Positions 7,378-43,272 of a stretch of 64,000 nucleotides of DNA are shown piece after piece. The notes under the pieces are model-generated. The model made no database searches. It saw nothing but the letters and a program-made list of their open reading frames with translations, and was not told the DNA's origin. How positions within the stretch are numbered: the stretch's first letter is position 1; the number at the start of each line of letters is the position of its first letter. The stretch is from an uncultured Haemophilus sp. (GTDB lineage Bacteria > Pseudomonadota > Gammaproteobacteria > Enterobacterales > Pasteurellaceae). Where the stretch lies: NCBI RefSeq assembly GCF_905205995.1, contig NZ_CAJLFU010000001.1. The stretch is one strand, 5' to 3'. A program made the translations under genes and the position numbers.

Positions 7378-8784
7378 CTAATAATCATCTCTGTATTCAC
7401 GCTGCTCGGCAAGATTATCAAAGCGTGAGAATTGACCGTTAAATGCTAAACGTACACGACCAATCGGACCGTTACGTTGTTTACCAATAATGATTTCAGC
7501 AACCCCTTTATCTTCGGAATTATCGTTATACACTTCGTCACGATAAATAAACATAATCAAGTCAGCATCCTGTTCAATGGAGCCTGATTCACGTAAGTCT
7601 GAGTTTACTGGACGTTTATCCGCACGTTGTTCCAAAGTACGGTTGAGCTGGGAAAGCGCAATGACCGGGACTTCTAATTCTTTCGCTAATGCTTTTAACG
7701 AGCGGGAAATCTCAGCGATTTCTAAGGTACGGTTATCTGAAAATGCAGGTGCGCGCATTAATTGAAGGTAATCCACCATAATCATGCTCAAGCCCCCATT
7801 TTCGCGATACACACGACGTGCGCGCGAACGCAATTCTGTTGGGGTTAAGCCAGATGAATCATCAATATAAAGATTGTTTTTTTGCTTAAACATCCCAAAC
7901 ACGCTGGCAATTTTGCTCCATTCCGTTTCATCCAAATTTTGACCAGTACGAATTTTGGTTTGGTCCACGCGAGCAAGAGAGGCAATCATACGCATCATGA
8001 TTTGTTCAGCAGGCATCTCCAAACTGAATACCAACACAGGCTTATCACTTGCCATGGCAGCATTTTCACAAAGGTTCATCGCAAACGTGGTTTTACCCAT
8101 AGAAGGACGTGCAGCGACAATGATGAGGTCTGAAGGCTGTAAACCTGCTGTTTTCTTATCTAAGTCAACAAAGCCCGTTGTGACCCCTGTCACACCGCTA
8201 TGATTTTCAAGCTTACTTAAGGTATCAATTCGAGCAATAGTACTTTCCAACACGCTGATCACATTTTGTGGTCCTTCAGTTGAAGAACTGCGTTTTTCAG
8301 CAATAGCAAATACTTCTCTTTCAGCTTCATCCAATACCATTTTGATGTCTTTGCCTTTCGGAGAATAGCTGTTTTCTGCGATACGATTTCCCACAGCAAT
8401 AAGCTCACGCAAAATCGCTTTTTCACGTACGATTTCAGCATAAGCCAAAATATTAATGGCATTTGGCGTGTTATTAGAAAGATCAGCGAGATAAGCAAAA
8501 CCGCCTACGGAATCACTAATACCTTTCGCTTTAAGGGCTTGATCAAGGGTGATTAAATCGATCGGTGTTTGGTTACGCATTAATTCTTCCATAGTTTGGA
8601 AGATTGCTTTATGCGCAAAAGTATAAAAATCCTCAGCGATCACTCTTTCTGCAATACCATCCCAATGTTGATTACTCAACATGATGCCGCCAAGTACGGC
8701 TTGTTCAGCTTCAGTGGAATGAGGCGGGATGCTAACTTGTTCAGTTTTCTGATCAGGTGATTGGATTTGTCGTTGTGATGCCAT
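7378..8784 (-). CDS. dnaB: replicative DNA helicase
   Basis: Walker A GKTTFAMNL and a RecA-like C-terminal domain; 468 aa. Confidence 0.95.
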   Translation of the reverse strand: MASQRQIQSPDQKTEQVSIPPHSTEAEQAVLGGIMLSNQHWDGIAERVIAEDFYTFAHKAIFQTMEELMRNQTPIDLITLDQALKAKGISDSVGGFAYLADLSNNTPNAINILAYAEIVREKAILRELIAVGNRIAENSYSPKGKDIKMVLDEAEREVFAIAEKRSSSTEGPQNVISVLESTIARIDTLSKLENHSGVTGVTTGFVDLDKKTAGLQPSDLIIVAARPSMGKTTFAMNLCENAAMASDKPVLVFSLEMPAEQIMMRMIASLARVDQTKIRTGQNLDETEWSKIASVFGMFKQKNNLYIDDSSGLTPTELRSRARRVYRENGGLSMIMVDYLQLMRAPAFSDNRTLEIAEISRSLKALAKELEVPVIALSQLNRTLEQRADKRPVNSDLRESGSIEQDADLIMFIYRDEVYNDNSEDKGVAEIIIGKQRNGPIGRVRLAFNGQFSRFDNLAEQREYRDDY

Positions 8785-8888
8785 AAGGATTTCAATTTAA
8801 ACTAAAAAACTGTGCTTATGATACCGCAAATACGAGGTGGTTTTAAGAAAAAAGTGCGGTTAATATTTTCAATATTTTAGAAATAAAA

Positions 8889-8916
8889 AACGGTGGAAAA
8901 ATCCACCGCTCTTTTT
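8889..8916 (-). terminator. intrinsic terminator downstream of pykA
   Basis: Hairpin cggtgg-aaaaa-tccaccg flanked by A/T runs. A single USS lies nearby at about 8852. Confidence 0.5.
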
Positions 8917-8930
8917 ATAAGAAATATTGA

Positions 8931-10367
8931 TTACTCAACGATTAAGGTACGGCAAACATTAGTTGTGCCTGCTGATTCATCACCTTGAGTTAATAATACA
9001 ATATCACCAGAAACCAAATAACCTTTTTCTTTTAATAGGTTAATCGCTGCTTTCGCACCTGCAGAAGTACGAGATTCACCATCAAAATGAACTGGTGTCA
9101 CACCACGGTATAATGCGCAACGGTTTAATGTTTCTTGAACACGAGAAAGTGCAAAGATTGGTAAACCTGAACTGATACGTGACATTAATAATGGTGTACG
9201 ACCAGAGTGGCTTAATGTAATAATTGCTGCAATACCGCTTAAGTGGTTTGCTGCGTACATTGCAGACATCGCTACAGATTCTTCAATATCTCTGAATTCA
9301 CGATCTAAACGGTGTTTAGAAATATTGATGCTTGGCATTTTTTCTGCACCTAAACATACGCGAGCCATTGTCGCCACAGTTTCAGCTGGATATTGACCTG
9401 CTGCAGTTTCAGCAGAAAGCATTACCGCGTCAGTACCATCTAATACCGCATTTGCCACGTCCATCACTTCTGCACGAGTTGGCATTGGGTTGCTGATCAT
9501 TGACTCCATCATTTGAGTTGCAGTAATAACCGCACGGTTTAATTGACGTGAACGACGAATTAATTTTTTCTGTACGCCAACTAATTCTGGGTCACCGATT
9601 TCAACACCTAAGTCACCACGAGCCACCATGATTACATCAGAAGCAAGAATAATATCATCCATTGCTGCTTCATCAACAACGGTTTCAGCACGCTCAACTT
9701 TAGCAACGATTTTCGCGTCTAAACCTGCTTGTTTTGCTAATTCACGCGCATAGTTTAAATCTGCACTTGAACGAGGGAAAGATACAGCTAAGTAATCTAC
9801 ACCGATACGTGCAGCTGTGATGATATCTGCTTTATCTTTTTCAGTTAATGCATCTGCAGATAAACCACCACCTAATTTATTGATCCCTTTATTGTTTGAT
9901 AATGGACCACCAACTGTCACTTCAGTAAATACTTTTGCACCGTCAGTAGAAAGGACTTTTAATTGAACACGGCCATCATCTAATAAAAGAATATCGCCAG
10001 GAACAACATCTTGTGGAAGTGTTTTATAGTCTAAACCAACGGCTTCTTGATTGCCTTCACCTTTTGGTAATTCCGCATCAAGAATAAATTTATCACCAAC
10101 ATTTAAGAAAATTTTGCCGTCTTTAAAAGTAGAAACACGAATTTTAGGGCCTTGTAAGTCACCTAAAATTGCCACGGTTTTACCTAATTTCTTCGCGATC
10201 GCACGAACACGCTCAGCACGCTCAATATGATCATCTGGTGTACCGTGAGAAAAGTTCATACGCACAACATTAGCGCCTGCTGCGATAATTTTTTCAAGAT
10301 TGTTATCGCGGTCTGTTGCAGGACCCATTGTACATACAATCTTCGTTCTTCTTAATTTTCTAGACAT
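8931..10367 (-). CDS. pykA: pyruvate kinase II
   Basis: N-terminus [19 protein letters not shown]; 478 aa. Confidence 0.9.
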
Positions 10368-36434: not shown

Positions 36435-36562
36435 TTTTGTTCCTAAATATATCTAAACAACGAAGATTAGAATTATAAATGGATCGATAATTTGTGCAAG
36501 CCAAACTACCCAAAAAACTGAAAATGACTTATACTTCTGCCGCTTATAGAGGTTTATTTATT

Positions 36563-37661
36563 ATGTTTGAAATCAATCCAATCAAAAACAAAATCGCCGA
36601 CCTTTCCGAGCGCACTTCTGTGCTTCGGGGGTATCTTTGACTTCGACGCAAAAGTCGAGCGTTTAGAAGAAGTTAATGCCGAATTAGAACAACCCGATGT
36701 GTGGAACGAACCTGAAAAAGCCCAAGCACTTGGGAAAGAGCGCGTTTCACTTGAACAAGTGGTTAATACCATCAAGAATTTAGAACAAGGTCTAGAGGAT
36801 GTTGAAGGACTGCTTGAATTAGCCGTTGAAGCGGAAGATGAAGAGACCTTCAATGAGGCTGTGGCTGAATTAGATGAGCTTGAACAACAACTCGCAAAAT
36901 TAGAATTCCGCCGCATGTTTAGCGGTGAACACGATGCATGTGATTGTTATGTCGATTTACAAGCGGGATCTGGTGGTACAGAAGCACAAGACTGGACGGA
37001 AATGTTACTTCGCATGTACCTTCGCTGGGCAGAAAGCAAAGGCTTTAAAACAGAATTAATGGAAGTCTCTGATGGAGATGTCGCAGGTTTAAAATCAGCG
37101 ACGATTCGTGTCAGTGGTGAATATGCTTTCGGTTGGTTACGTACAGAAACCGGTATCCATCGTTTAGTGCGCAAAAGTCCATTTGACTCTAATAACCGTC
37201 GCCATACATCATTTGCAGCAGTTTTTGTTTATCCTGAAATTGATGATGATATTGATATTGAAATCAATCCGGCTGATTTACGCATTGATGTTTACCGTGC
37301 ATCTGGTGCAGGTGGTCAGCACGTCAATAAAACTGAAAGTGCGGTGCGTATTACTCACATGCCAAGTGGGATTGTCGTGCAATGTCAAAACGATCGTTCT
37401 CAACACAAAAATAAAGATCAAGCCATGAAGCAGTTAAAAGCGAAATTGTATGAGCTTGAGTTACAAAAGAAAAATGCGGACAAACAAGCGATGGAAGATA
37501 ATAAATCTGATATTGGTTGGGGCAGCCAAATTCGTTCTTATGTGTTAGATGATGCGCGTATTAAGGATCTCCGCACAGGCGTTGAAAATCGTAATACACA
37601 AGCCGTATTGGATGGCGATCTTGACCGCTTTATTGAAGCGAGCTTAAAAGCGGGACTTTAA
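36563..37661 (+). CDS. prfB: peptide chain release factor 2 (programmed +1 frameshift at codon 26)
   Basis: ATG at 36563. Frame 0 reads [25 protein letters not shown] then TGA. The shift site AGG GGG TAT CTT TGA C (CTT 36635-37, TGA 36638-40) with an upstream SD-like AGGGGG is the classic RF2 recoding site. The +1 frame continues [11 protein letters not shown]…SPGQ (…GGQHVNKT…). Confidence 0.9.
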
Positions 37662-37712: not shown

Positions 37713-38780
37713 TTACACTTCTTCTTTTTCTTTCACTTTATTCTTGCCTAACACCACATCTTTCATCACCGTCAGCAATTCTTTTTGCACATGAGAAAGT
37801 TTTGGTTTTTCCGACTTTTCAAATGCCAGTGGACGACAAAACTCCATAGCCTTAATGCCCAATCGAGCGGTCAATAATCCCACGCCAAGCCCCTGCGCTG
37901 CTCGTGCTGAAAGTTTCGCAGTAATATCTTGTGAAAGCCAATCCATGCCTAAATCTTGCACGATTTCAGTTGCACCAGCAAAAGCAAGATTCACTAACAC
38001 CATTCTGAGTAAACGAAGGCGGGTAAAATACCCAAGCTCAATCCCATAAATCACTGCAATTTTATTGATTAAACGAATATTTCGCCACGCAATAAAAAAC
38101 ATATCAATAATGGCTAAAGGACTGATTGCCACAATCACCGCTGATTCTGCTGCCATTTTAGTAATCAGTTTTTTCGCTTTTTGATCAAAAGACTGTAACA
38201 CCGTTTGACTAAATAAATGGGTAACTTCGCGAGCTGAATAACTTTCATTCAACTGTTTTTCCCATTGGACAATTGCGGGATGTTGCGAATCCAATTTTAA
38301 GGTATCTGCAATCGATAAACACAAGGCTCTTCCTTTCTCACTATCCTGTTCAGAAAAAACGTGATGGTTTTTAACCGCACTTTCACCTATTAATCGCTGA
38401 CTTTGTTCTTGTAAATTTAAGCGTTTTTTAAGTTTCACCAAACGTCGCCATTCTGCGATGATTTCAGATAAACCAAACAACACAACGACAAAACTCACCA
38501 AGGCAAAAGCAAGATAAATCCATTGTTGATTTTGATAACTATCCCAAATCCATTGAACAGATTGCGCAACCGTCGCCCCTAAAAATAAAAGTGCGGTCAA
38601 TTTCAAAGCCGTTTTCCAACCACTCGGTTTAGGCTTCACAATTTGCTCAAATTGCTCGTCCAACAACTCCCCTTCTAAAGGTTCGTTATCGATGGTTGTT
38701 TCAACATTATAAAACTCCTGCTTAGGCAGAATTTCTTCCTCTTCGGGTTGGTGAGATTGTGTGAAAATTTGTTTTGTCAT
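37713..38780 (-). CDS. ycjF: UPF0283 inner-membrane protein YcjF
   Basis: Collinear with E. coli YcjF (acidic N-terminus, …VQWIWDSYQ…, TM segments, EWRRL). Likely start MTKQIFT; the ORF extends to 38861. Confidence 0.8.
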   Translation of the reverse strand: MTKQIFTQSHQPEEEEILPKQEFYNVETTIDNEPLEGELLDEQFEQIVKPKPSGWKTALKLTALLFLGATVAQSVQWIWDSYQNQQWIYLAFALVSFVVVLFGLSEIIAEWRRLVKLKKRLNLQEQSQRLIGESAVKNHHVFSEQDSEKGRALCLSIADTLKLDSQHPAIVQWEKQLNESYSAREVTHLFSQTVLQSFDQKAKKLITKMAAESAVIVAISPLAIIDMFFIAWRNIRLINKIAVIYGIELGYFTRLRLLRMVLVNLAFAGATEIVQDLGMDWLSQDITAKLSARAAQGLGVGLLTARLGIKAMEFCRPLAFEKSEKPKLSHVQKELLTVMKDVVLGKNKVKEKEEV

Positions 38781-38961
38781 TATTCTTTCCAATAAAAATA
38801 GAGACGGTATTTTACTTCGAATTTCTTTAGCAAATCTTAAATGGCTGAAATAAAAAAGCAATATTGACTAAAAAATAAAATGAGCTACTATAGCCATTGT
38901 CCACAATTAGTTTATCTAATGTGTTAAGTTTTAACTGTTAACTAACTAGAAGGATCTTTTC

Positions 38962-40068
38962 ATGAAGAAACTTATCGCCACTGCGGTGCTCTCCGCGTGT
39001 TCAATGGCTTATGCCAATACCGACATTCCAAACTACAATACCGATTCTCATCTGTATGAATTCACTCAAACTTATGACTTAGTTGCGCCAAAAGGTTCGC
39101 AAGGACAAGCGAATCTGTGGGTGCCTTTACCGTTTAATGGCGAGTATCAACAGGTAAAATCTATCCATTTTGAAGGTAACTATTTGGATGCCTATGTGAC
39201 AGAAAACAACAAATATGGTGCGAAAACCCTCTTTGCAACTTGGGATAAAGATGCACAAAAACGCGATTTAAAAATCACAATGGTGATTGAAACCAAAGAT
39301 CGCGAACCAATGGTTAAAGGTTTGTTGACGAATTACAAGCCACCAAAAGACGTTCACTATTCTGTTGATGTACAAGAATATTTAAAACCGACTCAACATA
39401 TTAAAACAGATGGTATTGTGAAACAGTTCGCCGATAAAATTGTAGGCACAGAAACCAATCCATTGAAAAAAGCTGAGTTGATTCACCAATGGATCGTCAA
39501 CAATATGGAACGTGATAATTCTGTTTTAGGCTGTGGTGATGGTGATGTAGAAAAAATCCTAACCACTGGTGTGCTAAAAGGCAAATGTACCGATATTAAC
39601 TCTGTTTTCGTTGCACTTGCTCGTGCCAGCGGTATTCCTGCTCGTGAAATTTTCGGTATTCGTTTAGGTGCGGCGGATAAAATGGGCAAATATTCCAAAG
39701 GTGCTTTCGGTAGTGCGGATGAACATGGCGTAGCAAACGTGAGTGGTGGTCAGCATTGTCGTGCTGAGTTCTATCTTGCTGGATTCGGCTGGGTGCCTGT
39801 TGATTCTGCAGACGTGGCAAAAATGCGTTTAGCAGAGAAAAAATCTATTGAAGATAGCGATACGCAAGCTGTAGCTAAATATTTATTTGGTAACTGGGAA
39901 GCAAACTGGGTTGGCTTTAACCATGCTCGCGACTTTGATTTATATCCGCAACCAGAACTTGCTCCACTCAATAACTTTGGCTATCCGTACGCCGAAATCG
40001 GTGGTGACCCGTTAAATTCATTTGATCCAAAAGAATTTAAATATGACTACGTCTCTAAAAAGCTCTAA
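38962..40068 (+). CDS. transglutaminase-like (TGc) periplasmic lipoprotein
   Basis: Lipobox LSAC. TGase core [30 protein letters not shown] (Cys), HCRAEFY (His), WVPVDSAD (Asp). Confidence 0.7.
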
Positions 40069-40405
40069 TAAATCTTTTTGGGTTGCGATTGCCACCGCGC
40101 TAAGTGCTGCGGTGGCATCAACCTTGTGCTGCATTGCGCCTTTAATCTATTTAGTTTTTGGCGTGTCATCCACATGGTTGATTGGCTTGGGTGAATATGA
40201 TTATTTACGCATTCCTATGCTTATCGTTTCATTATGCGCCTTTGCCTACGGCTTTTGGTTGCTGATGTTTTCCAAAAAAATCATCTGCAGCAAATACATT
40301 TCCCGTAAAAAGCTCATTGTTTTGTATTGGATTGTATTTATCGTCATGATGTTTTTCTTAACTTATCCAACCATTTTACCGTGGATTTTAGAGCTTTCTA
40401 ATTAG
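40043..40405 (+). CDS. MerT-like membrane protein (mercuric-transport family, Cys-Cys motif in TM1)
   Basis: ...[18 protein letters not shown]... matches the MerT TM1 CC motif. 3 TM segments. The ORF opens at 40022 and overlaps the TGc gene in another frame; the internal ATG at 40043 is the likely start. Confidence 0.6.
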
Positions 40406-40414
40406 GAACAAAAA

Positions 40415-40693
40415 ATGAAGAAATTAACGACCGCACTTTTGCTTTCATTATTCATCTTCTCTATTGCGCAAGCGGAAGAAACAAAGCAAGTTGTGCTAAA
40501 AGTGAATGAAATGAACTGCCAGCTTTGTGCTTATTTAGTGAATAAAGAGCTACGCAATATTGATGGCGTAATTTCCACTAAAGCCTCGATTAAAGATAGA
40601 ACGGTGACTGTTGTAGAAGATCCAAAAGTTTCCGATGAACAATTGATTAATGCGATTCATAAATTAGAATATACGGCAGAAGTAGTTAAATAA
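40415..40693 (+). CDS. MerP-like periplasmic heavy-metal-associated (HMA) protein
   Basis: Signal peptide. HMA fold with metal-binding site NEMNCQLC (CxxC). 92 aa. Confidence 0.65.
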   Translation: MKKLTTALLLSLFIFSIAQAEETKQVVLKVNEMNCQLCAYLVNKELRNIDGVISTKASIKDRTVTVVEDPKVSDEQLINAIHKLEYTAEVVK

Positions 40694-40707
40694 AGCGCTA
40701 GAAAAAT

Positions 40708-40763
40708 AAAAGTGCGGTCAATTTTGAGAAGTTTTAAAACTCATTAAATTTGACCGCACTTTA
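40708..40763 (+). terminator. USS inverted pair with long loop (aagtgcggtcaa…ttgaccgcactt)
   Basis: Direct and inverted USS 32 nt apart, downstream of the merP-like gene. Confidence 0.4.
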
Positions 40764-41144
40764 TATCTGGGTATTTAAAATTATATTCAACTCAAATATC
40801 AATCTATCCAATATTACCATCGTTTATTCCTAGCTTCAATTATCAAAACTAAAGTCGCCATTGCTGCGGATCCATTTAGCCAGAAATATGCCATTTTCTT
40901 AAAATCAGAAAAAGAATAACTATCAAGTTTTAGAAGTAGTTCAAACAAACTAAATGCTAATGTAGAAAATGTAAAACAAATAATAAATATAATTACCCAA
41001 AATATAAGGTATTGAAGCAATAGTTTAATTTTCAATATTCCCCCCTATATGTCCGCTCATTATCATCAAACACATTACTAATTTAAATATATTTATCAAA
41101 TAACTACCAATGGTTCGGTATAGTGTTGCCTTAGATTTAAACAC

Positions 41145-41178
41145 AAAGTGCGGTCAAAATTGACCGCACTTTTTTATC
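41145..41178 (-). terminator. USS-pair terminator downstream of sodC (aaagtgcggtcaaaattgaccgcactttttt)
   Basis: Perfect inverted USS with flanking T/A runs. Confidence 0.6.
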
Positions 41179-41192
41179 TTTCGATAATCGAC

Positions 41193-41753
41193 TTATTTAA
41201 TCACGCCACATGCCATACGTGGGCCGCCACCGCCAAGTGGAGCTGGATGATCTGAGTGGTTATCACCACCAGCGTGAATCATAATAGAGTGACCACGAAC
41301 TTCATCTAATTTTTTAAGACGAGGCGCTAAAACAGGGTTAGTTGCTGTACCATCATGTAATACAGTTAAAGCCGGTAAGTCACCTAAGTGAGCATCATCT
41401 TGCCATGGGTAACCGTGTTGTTTTGTACCTTTAGGATCCCAGTGACCGCCAGCCGCTAAACCTGCTGTTAATTTACCGTCTTTTTCTTTTGGATCACAGC
41501 TTGGATTTTCATGAATGTGGAAACCATGTAAACCTTCAGCTAAACCTTGTAGGTTTGGTGTAAACACTAAACCATAATTTGATTCAGTAATCGTTACAGT
41601 CCCTACATCTTTGTTACCATTTGCAGGATCTAATTGTTGTACTTTTACTTCGATTGAAGGACCTGCTGGTTTTGCCATATGGTCATGTGCATTTGCCACG
41701 CCAGCAGCACAAATTCCGCTGATTGCTAATGCTAAGAGAGTTTTCATTTTCAT
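41193..41753 (-). CDS. sodC: periplasmic Cu,Zn superoxide dismutase
   Basis: Signal peptide. His-rich N-terminal HDHMAKPAG. Cu/Zn ligands ([12 protein letters not shown]…; GGHWDP; HAGGDNHSD). The ORF extends to 41783. Confidence 0.85.
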
Positions 41754-41862
41754 CATAAGCTCCTTTACTTTAGAAAGACTCAAGTTAATTCTACCTAAAT
41801 ACCAATAAAAAAATAGTGGTTTATATTAAATATTTGACAATTAAATTGATTTGATTTTTCTA

Positions 41863-43272
41863 TCAATCAAACCTATCCGCCAATAAAAACTGCAAGACTG
41901 CATCCATTCTTAAATGCGGGATGCTTTCACCTTGTTGTAAAACTTGAGGTTCAAAGGAATCAAAATCAAAAGATTGTTTTGACCAGAACTCAGCATTAGG
42001 TAGTTTACTTGGAACAGATCCTGGATAAAGTGTAATCAGTTGTTTATCTAAAGAACGCACACCTTGAATAGCTTTGATTTGTTTACCGTTTTGATTAACT
42101 AAAACCTGTTTTGTTGCTCTAATCGCAGCAATTGCCGTATATTCTGTATCAATCCCTTCAAATTCAACATGACGACCGCCTTCTTGCACCAATTGGCGCA
42201 TCAGGCTGATTAGGTTTTGAATTTGATCTGTCGTGATATGATCGGCTTTTGTTGCCACAAACATGAGTTTATCAATATTCGGGGAAAACAAGCGATTAAG
42301 TAAATTGCGTTTCCCATAATGGAAATTTTTGAAAAGCTGATTAAGCCCCGTTTGCATATCGATAAAGGCTTGTTGACTGTGATTCAGTGGCGTTAAGCAA
42401 TCGGCTAAAATCACCTGGCGATCAAAAGTAGAAAAATAATTTTCATAAAAGCCTTTCACCACCTTATTACGATAATAATCATATCGCTTATTCAACACGG
42501 CAAAATAGCTATTGGATTTCGCTTCTCTTTTCAGTTTTTGCCATTGTTCTTCCGACAAATGCAATAACGGGAAAAATTGCAAAACAGGTGCGCCTTCTAA
42601 TTCCCCAGGCAAGACAAATCGGCCTGGTTGAATAAATTGCATTCCTTCTACTTTGCAGGCAAGCAAATAATCGGTATAAGATTTTGCAATCTGCGCTAAA
42701 ACATCTTCATTAACGACCGCACTTAGATCGAGTTTTTTCAGTTTATCCAACCAATCTTGAGCAAACTGCTGGCGAATACCTGATGTAATTTTAGCTTGTT
42801 CAAGTGACCATTGTTGAAAATCTAAATTCAGCAAAGGTAAATCCAATAGCCATTCACCAGGGTAATCAAAAATATCCAAGTATAATGTACCACGTTCTTT
42901 AAAATGGCGAAGTAAGCCTGATTGGCGTTCAAAACGAATAGCAAGACGTGTTTCACTTACCCCTCGGGTAGATTGGCACCATTGTGGAGGATTATTCATT
43001 AAATCATTGAGATTCGCTTCATAATCAAAACGTGGAATACTTAAATCCTGCTGTGGCACACGTTTTACTGCCAAAATAGATTGATTTCGGGCAGCCTCAA
43101 ATAAAGGAAGATGAGCATTTCCCTCTTGATTAATATATAACAATTGATTAATCAAGCTCGTAATAAAGGCTGTTTTACCGCTTCGACTTAGCCCTGTCAC
43201 AGCTAAACGTAAAGTGCGGTCAAATCCACGATTGATTATTTGATTAATTTCCCGATTAATTGATTTAAACAT
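41863..43272 (-). CDS. ycjX: YcjX-like P-loop ATPase (DUF463)
   Basis: N-terminal P-loop LAVTGLSRSGKTAF; 469 aa. In E. coli it is the operon partner of ycjF. Confidence 0.85.
   Translation of the reverse strand: MFKSINREINQIINRGFDRTLRLAVTGLSRSGKTAFITSLINQLLYINQEGNAHLPLFEAARNQSILAVKRVPQQDLSIPRFDYEANLNDLMNNPPQWCQSTRGVSETRLAIRFERQSGLLRHFKERGTLYLDIFDYPGEWLLDLPLLNLDFQQWSLEQAKITSGIRQQFAQDWLDKLKKLDLSAVVNEDVLAQIAKSYTDYLLACKVEGMQFIQPGRFVLPGELEGAPVLQFFPLLHLSEEQWQKLKREAKSNSYFAVLNKRYDYYRNKVVKGFYENYFSTFDRQVILADCLTPLNHSQQAFIDMQTGLNQLFKNFHYGKRNLLNRLFSPNIDKLMFVATKADHITTDQIQNLISLMRQLVQEGGRHVEFEGIDTEYTAIAAIRATKQVLVNQNGKQIKAIQGVRSLDKQLITLYPGSVPSKLPNAEFWSKQSFDFDSFEPQVLQQGESIPHLRMDAVLQFLLADRFD

Follow-up and report, generated by a model that had tools for sequence, protein, structure and literature searches.

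In E. coli the genes ycjX and ycjF are joined, and the question raised by the locus described here is why they have come apart in a Haemophilus and what the genes now lying between them are doing there. The locus is in a 64,000-nucleotide stretch of DNA from an uncultured Haemophilus sp. (assembly GCF_905205995.1, contig NZ_CAJLFU010000001.1; hereafter, the window), whose source, as judged from a YcjX identity of 98-100%, is H. parainfluenzae. In the window, 3082 bp separate the stop codon of ycjX from the start of ycjF; this interval contains sodC, which encodes a periplasmic Cu,Zn superoxide dismutase, and, convergent with it, the tgl-merT-merP operon (the trio), which encodes a transglutaminase-like lipoprotein (Tgl), a MerT-like membrane protein and a MerP-like periplasmic protein. 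A preliminary, sequence-only reading of this DNA had described a split of about 3 kb and proposed that the interval is one acquired cargo with a metal/thiol theme. Our conclusion is different: the interval probably reflects a rearrangement of genes resident in the chromosome, one that is lineage-specific, old and fixed, and not a recent island (we put the probability at roughly 0.6).

The first step is to establish which gene order is ancestral. We scanned one genome per species for YcjX, which gave 79 loci, and mapped twelve proteins of the window onto all of them. In 17 Pasteurellaceae loci from about ten genera (Pasteurella, Lonepinella, Necropsobacter, Mesocricetibacter, Canicola, Histophilus, Actinobacillus seminis, Bisgaard taxon 46, Aggregatibacter and others), ycjX and ycjF are only 8-63 bp apart, and a short tyrR is the next gene after ycjF in 15 of these. 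In E. coli the two genes overlap by 4 bp and are also followed by tyrR, so the sequence-only reading described that genome correctly. Huvet et al. (PMC3041696) report that ycjX and ycjF are neighbors in almost all species and belong, together with tyrR, to one unit that has a sigma-32 promoter. The window encodes orthologs of the same DUF463 and DUF697 proteins, and many Pasteurellaceae have the three-gene order beside sapA; the window differs from the E. coli unit in its 3082-bp gap, in the two terminators and the convergent operon inside that gap, and in the lack of a neighboring tyrR (tyrR is absent both from the window and from the H. parainfluenzae loci). Because 17 Pasteurellaceae loci and E. 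coli keep ycjX and ycjF together, gene order indicates that adjacency is ancestral in the Pasteurellaceae and the 3-kb gap of H. parainfluenzae a derived state. The sequence-only reading had held that a split in most genomes of the family would make that order ancestral; the comparison of spacing did not find a split in most genomes, and the view of the split as a departure from a conserved order stands.

The derived order is uniform. All 29 loci of the H. parainfluenzae group that are long enough read sapBA<- ->ycjX sodC <-merP merT tgl ->ycjF <-prfB. We called the genes in the window from a list of open reading frames (ORFs) and from Pfam and NCBIfam profile searches; the features, including hairpins formed by inverted pairs of the uptake signal sequence (USS), are as follows.

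37713-38780, minus strand: ycjF, a DUF697/TIGR01620 inner-membrane protein (E-value 1e-109; PF05128, E-value 3e-58; TIGR01620, 367 bits against a cut-off of 160)
38781-38961: divergent intergenic region between ycjF and tgl, 181 bp
38962-40068, plus strand: tgl-like lipoprotein gene (Transglut_core PF01841, E-value 4e-24; lipobox LSAC)
40043-40405, plus strand: gene for a MerT-like small membrane protein (PF02411, 34.1 bits against a cut-off of 32.9; CC motif in the first transmembrane helix)
40415-40693, plus strand: gene for a MerP/HMA-like periplasmic protein (PF00403, E-value 2e-9; signal peptide and a CxxC motif, MNCQLC)
40709-40762: USS inverted-pair hairpin, predicted terminator of the tgl-merT-merP operon (USS at 40710 on the plus and 40753 on the minus strand)
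40763-41144, minus strand: cassette slot between the hairpins, strain-variable, holding orf73 in the window
40814-41035, minus strand: orf73, a 73-amino-acid hydrophobic protein (GC 0.27; codon adaptation index [CAI] 0.56)
41145-41172: USS inverted-pair hairpin, predicted terminator of sodC and the sole bidirectional terminator where the slot is empty
41193-41756, minus strand: sodC, periplasmic Cu,Zn superoxide dismutase (NF007628, 179.8 bits against a cut-off of 165; Sod_Cu PF00080)
41757-41862, minus strand: region upstream of sodC, which moves together with sodC
41863-43272, minus strand: ycjX, a DUF463 P-loop protein (PF04317, E-value 1e-177)

Every gene named by the sequence-only reading was recovered at or near the coordinates it gave. 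Its layout also holds: sodC lies downstream of ycjX in the same orientation and is bounded by a USS hairpin, the trio forms a convergent plus-strand operon, and ycjF and tgl are on opposite strands across their intergenic region; the second USS hairpin (that of the trio) and orf73 are additions to that description. The ATG of ycjF at 38780 fits 355-amino-acid homologs that are 98% identical. The merT-like gene overlaps tgl by 26 nt, and in the annotations of relatives its product has 117-120 residues. An AAGGAG ribosome-binding site precedes the sodC ATG at 41756, and the sequence of the protein reads as having an N-terminal signal sequence. As elsewhere in the family, sapA is divergent from ycjX. 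On the other side of the locus, prfB (36554-37661) is convergent with ycjF, and this junction of ycjF with prfB-dsbC-recJ is specific to H. parainfluenzae; thus, the neighbors of ycjF are non-ancestral on both sides.

A derived order could still be the product of acquisition from outside, but the composition of the interval is native. Its GC content is 0.370 (0.380 ± 0.014 for equal-sized windows), its tetranucleotide distance is average (exceeded in 36% of equal-sized windows), and the CAI of its genes is 0.64-0.80 (0.69 ± 0.04), with orf73 alone atypical. The sequence-only reading had named equal composition of interval and flanks as evidence against an insertion, and equal composition is what we found. 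Profile searches detected no integrase or transposase among the ORFs of the interval, an Rfam scan of 37-44 kb returned no RNA family, and a tRNA scan of the region returned none. Searches of plasmid and phage collections gave no match to the whole block of four genes (sodC and the trio); hits to the trio came from large P. multocida records and one Providencia plasmid, and hits to sodC, at 67-75%, from some phages. Within the H. parainfluenzae group, 29 of 29 spanning loci have the block, no genome that we scanned has an empty site with adjacent ycjX and ycjF, and variation is confined to the slot between sodC and merP. Neither border of the interval resembles the ancestral ycjX-ycjF spacers (8-63 bp). 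A 15-nt AT-rich direct repeat (38789-38803 and 41802-41816; 13 of 15 positions match) is located just inside both borders, with its copies 3013 bp apart; we rejected it as a target-site duplication and regard it as probably due to chance, curious though its placement is.

The four genes are also long-standing residents of the family. SodC is found family-wide at 65-88% identity. Tgl is 70-80% identical across the Pasteurellaceae and ~60% identical in Shewanella, which also carries the trio, with ~130 residues invariant between the two groups. In P. multocida the trio is located between apaH and leuS and in A. pleuropneumoniae between pqiA and an iron-dependent alcohol dehydrogenase gene, in both cases without sodC. 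The identities to H. haemolyticus are 92% for Tgl, 95% for MerT, 81% for MerP and 85% for SodC. Both the block proteins and YcjF, which is not part of the block, identify the H. influenzae/H. haemolyticus group as the nearest relative (Tgl 92%, YcjF 70%), followed by Pasteurella and H. pittmaniae (Tgl 75-78%, YcjF 56-58%). Judged by these identities, there is no sign that the block genes have a separate history; their divergence appears to track that of the species. We considered recent exchange as the reason why Tgl is 92% identical to that of H. haemolyticus and rejected it, as YcjF ranks the relatives alike. As a separate observation, a 243-kb plasmid of Providencia rettgeri (NZ_CP082352.1, 27482-28081) carries a gene of the transglutaminase family followed by one of the MerT family, with 65% DNA identity to the window, so the tgl-merT module is not confined to chromosomes.

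The proposal of a single acquired cargo therefore divides: the four genes do recur as a block, and the notion of acquisition is contradicted by native composition, the lack of mobility genes, fixation in the group and family-wide distribution. The convergent trio and sodC, with the same USS-hairpin junction, occur in at least five chromosomal contexts among relatives that share the USS; the contexts other than that of the window, with the left flank on the side of tgl, are as follows.

H. haemolyticus: dmsCBA<- at the left, block, <-folB at the right
H. pittmaniae: dmsA<- at the left, block, <-ycjX and sapA-> at the right
Locus L096: a gene of 1215 amino acids at the left, block, folB at the right
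Locus L087: a BCCT gene at the left, block with a DUF5677 cassette, methyltransferase-recF-dnaN-dnaA at the right
Locus L088 ('Aggregatibacter sp. Marseille-P9115'): left flank as in L087, no sodC

The window shares with H. pittmaniae and the H. haemolyticus/H. influenzae group the four genes, their orientation and the USS-hairpin junction, and with H. pittmaniae also the position of sodC directly downstream of ycjX. It differs from H. haemolyticus, in which the flanks are dmsA and folB, from H. pittmaniae, in which one flank is dmsA, and from both H. influenzae and H. pittmaniae in that ycjF is elsewhere in those species. The end-points of homology are constant across contexts, ~110 nt before tgl on one side and ~105-150 nt before sodC on the other; the latter end coincides, in the window, with the stop codon of ycjX. 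When the contexts are compared in pairs, only the left flank differs between H. parainfluenzae and H. pittmaniae, only the right flank between H. pittmaniae and H. haemolyticus, and only the left flank between H. haemolyticus and L096. Flanks that change on one side per step point to successive breakpoints at the edges of the block instead of a block that jumps. Within L087, tgl (8001-8969) has an in-frame deletion of ~45 codons (leaving 322 amino acids; positions 39640-39774 of the window are missing), and the remainder is 77-94% identical to that in the window.

The junction of ycjX and ycjF has also been disturbed in other ways. Eleven Rodentibacter species have a DUF535 (VirK/YbjX-type) gene between the two, transcribed from the other strand; in Cricetibacter the junction contains genes for an OmpA/BamE-like lipoprotein and a small lipoprotein as well as an IS1595 transposase; in H. 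influenzae, ycjF is alone behind a Bax1-I gene; and in three further species no ycjF is found within 10 kb of ycjX. In H. pittmaniae, ycjX remains next to sapA and ycjF directly follows a gene for a dmsD-like chaperone (L092, 6299-8059); in the same species dmsABC abut tgl (L085, 1152-7741). A dms operon may once have been located between tgl and ycjF and have been split later. The junction has thus been broken repeatedly within one part of the Pasteurellaceae.

From these comparisons we infer an order of events. The starting point would be the ancestral arrangement sapBA<- ->ycjX-ycjF-tyrR. On the way to H. parainfluenzae, a pair of self-contained units would have come between ycjX and ycjF: tgl-merT-merP, which has a promoter and a leader to itself, and sodC, which likewise has a separate promoter. 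The units are convergent and would share a USS-hairpin terminator. H. parainfluenzae would have kept this state, with the block between ycjX and ycjF, and other lineages would later have broken on either side of it; breakpoints at the edges of the block would have produced the dmsA-block-ycjX order of H. pittmaniae, the dmsA-block-folB order of H. haemolyticus and the others.

Several points weigh against this account. The direction and number of the rearrangement events in it are tentative. The genome scan was pattern-based, and the ycjX of H. influenzae and its downstream neighbor fell outside the set that it returned. The promoters assigned to the units, like all promoters in this work, are predictions. 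Rodentibacter lacks the block at its ycjX-ycjF junction, and a 2026 phylogenomic study (PMC13076348) puts this genus beside the H. influenzae group; if the block entered once, in an ancestor common to both Haemophilus groups, it must therefore have been lost or replaced later in Rodentibacter, or lineages must have exchanged it. Exchange between competent lineages that share the USS is a live alternative: en-bloc transfer by transformation is conceivable given natural competence, the shared USS and a fragment with sodC, a USS hairpin and a partial merP that has demonstrably entered a genome bearing the Neisseria DNA uptake sequence (DUS).

That fragment occurs in two loci (L097, 7845-8813, and L098, 7615-8583). 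Each has a sodC 82-84% identical to that of the window, upstream region included, and behind it a Haemophilus-type USS hairpin and, further on, a frameshifted remnant of merP. The contigs have the Neisseria DUS and an sdhCDAB-gltA-sucA neighborhood, and the best DNA match of the fragment is L087 (88% over 731 nt). The merP remnant behind the transferred sodC implies that the donor already had the convergent sodC/merP pair. Kroll et al. reportedly found in 1998 that the meningococcal sodC was acquired from Haemophilus; the L097 and L098 copies resemble that case in having a sodC with a Haemophilus-type USS hairpin in DUS-bearing contigs. The copy in the window is different: it is part of an intact resident block, and the sodC of L097 and L098 stands alone, in a fragment where merP survives as a decayed remnant. 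Transfer of sodC from Haemophilus to Neisseria is cited as published work in PMC3088665.

The closest defensible form of the single-cargo proposal is that a pre-formed four-gene block, with USS hairpins inside it and its own promoters at its ends, arrived from a related Haemophilus by natural transformation and recombined exactly between ycjX and ycjF, with integration by illegitimate or homology-facilitated recombination. This version explains why the same block has the same end-points in the several contexts of USS-sharing relatives, it has a partial precedent in the DUS-bearing genome, and it fits the density of USS cores (5 in the 3.1-kb interval, as compared with 0.77 per kb across the window). 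We nevertheless consider it unlikely, although worth keeping in view, because movement of the block would alter both flanks and only one differs per step in the series H. parainfluenzae, H. pittmaniae, H. haemolyticus and L096; moreover, the block shows neither compositional nor phylogenetic discordance with its flanks, and the H. parainfluenzae group provides no empty site.

Somewhat more doubtful is a history of two independent events, that is, sodC inserted behind ycjX and the trio upstream of ycjF at different times, with the shared metal/thiol theme a coincidence. Outside the Haemophilus groups the trio is never beside sodC, and the units are convergent and have their own promoters, so their structure does not make them co-regulated. 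The gap between the units is itself an insertion hot spot, the truly variable part of the interval: among 34 loci of the H. parainfluenzae group, the slot is empty in 14, contains orf73 in 15, a DUF5677 gene (270 amino acids) in three and a lipoprotein gene (203 amino acids) in two. An empty slot is 60-69 bp long and has one bidirectional USS hairpin; in the orf73 type the cassette sits between two USS hairpins. A PADLOC scan of the slot cassettes and of Tgl identified no defense family. Cassettes at the slot in other loci are at the following positions.

L032: 12174-12986
L029: 12127-12738
L087: 9561-10442

Against two separate events, the sodC/merP pair is retained in five contexts and in the fragment transferred to the DUS-bearing genome, which argues that the pair formed once and early.

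A recently acquired foreign island would account for the interruption of a conserved operon by genes whose products are all envelope or metal-related; it is very improbable given native composition and codon use, the lack of mobility genes, tRNA or convincing flanking repeats, the universality of the interval in the H. parainfluenzae group, and family-wide genes with species-like divergence. That the split is the ancestral order and adjacency elsewhere secondary, as the equal composition of interval and flanks would suggest by the sequence-only reading's own standard, is hardly credible when the tyrR-linked adjacency is common to E. coli, Aggregatibacter, Pasteurella, Lonepinella, Necropsobacter and others.

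An old rearrangement of resident genes, our preferred explanation, has consequences for regulation, and the regulatory regions of the two units are indeed independent. A promoter scan predicts a sigma-70-like site (TTGACT-N16-TACTAT, 38864-38891) upstream of tgl, and cross-context alignment shows that the tgl-proximal ~110 nt (about 38850-38961) accompany tgl in all contexts. The tgl leader at 38895-38950, ATTAGTTTATCTAATGTGTTAAGTTTTAACTGTTAAC, contains GTTAA/TTAAC repeats and is kept in all Haemophilus contexts and in part in P. multocida; this leader is a candidate operator for some regulator. The ycjF/tgl spacer is nearly invariant in the 29 H. parainfluenzae-group loci (177-181 bp); ycjF has lost both ycjX and tyrR as neighbors, and its predicted promoter must be located in this divergent region. 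In an alignment of six contexts, an invariant -10-like hexamer (TAGAAT/TAAAAT; 41793-41788 in the window) precedes the start of sodC by 35-45 nt. A terminator scan detected none between ycjX and sodC, so read-through from ycjX into sodC is possible, although not required. The sequence-only reading had carried over sigma-32 control and co-transcription from E. coli. Neither finds support here: a scan for CTTGAAA-N11-16-CCCCATNT with up to 4 mismatches upstream of ycjX, sodC and ycjF, crude in that it used the E. coli consensus only, gave no match, and sodC has its own conserved -10-like element.

What the trio does can be approached by comparison with known systems. Tgl has an N-terminal beta-sandwich followed by Transglut_core, and Cys209, His265 and Asp281 are invariant in a 28-sequence alignment (mean column identity 73%). 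Foldseek searches with its AlphaFold model (pLDDT 79.6) identified 3ISR (E-value 1e-15) and TgpA (6G49; E-value 5e-6). Tgl has the fold and the conserved Cys-His-Asp core of TgpA (P. aeruginosa) and 3ISR (Cytophaga hutchinsonii); however, it is only 13-16% identical to them and is a lipoprotein without a membrane domain. Sequence and fold searches of the PDB returned only uncharacterized or distant transglutaminase-like proteins, so we infer no substrate.

As in a mer operon, the trio includes a membrane protein with a CC pair in its first helix (STLCCIAP) and an adjacent co-oriented HMA protein with a CxxC motif. In contrast to a mer operon, the loop of the MerT-like protein has one Cys and the second cytoplasmic Cys pair is absent, no MerA, MerR or MerD is encoded nearby, and the gene for a transglutaminase-like lipoprotein is always ahead of the merT-merP pair. 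MerA and MerR were found neither among the ORFs of 35.5-45.5 kb of the window nor in seven other contexts of the trio, and the scores against the NCBIfam equivalogs are far below their cut-offs (31.4 against 150 for MerT and 39.4 against 92.55 for MerP). The trio, then, is not a mer operon. A hand-over of a thiophilic metal in the style of MerP to MerT is, by homology, the best available analogy: the periplasmic HMA protein would pass the metal to the MerT-like membrane protein, beside the Cys-His-Asp lipoprotein enzyme, and SodC would detoxify periplasmic superoxide. The metal/thiol theme that the sequence-only reading saw in the four genes is unproven, and a literature search identified no paper connecting MerT, MerP and transglutaminase-like proteins. 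One possibility for a link is that SodC receives its copper from the HMA protein, or has it buffered there, and that the lipoprotein acts on a thiol-metal carrier. It is a long shot that the trio, very strongly conserved as it is, handles a thiophilic metal such as Cu(I) in the envelope and that its pairing with sodC in Haemophilus, which has outlasted at least five changes of flanks, could reflect such a functional link.

For the biology of Haemophilus and the Pasteurellaceae, the locus is an ordinary example of operon erosion in genome evolution: even the textbook ycjX-ycjF(-tyrR) unit can be broken up, which will not surprise specialists in bacterial genome evolution. Because the ycjX-ycjF junction has been broken repeatedly, regulation established in E. 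coli (sigma-32, co-transcription) should not be transferred to Haemophilus annotations. The same caution applies to the trio, a highly conserved operon that databases describe, without support, as mercury transport. The locus also supplies the donor-side anatomy for the classic transfer of sodC from Haemophilus to Neisseria, and it offers two modest leads, the uncharacterized trio and the variable cassette slot.

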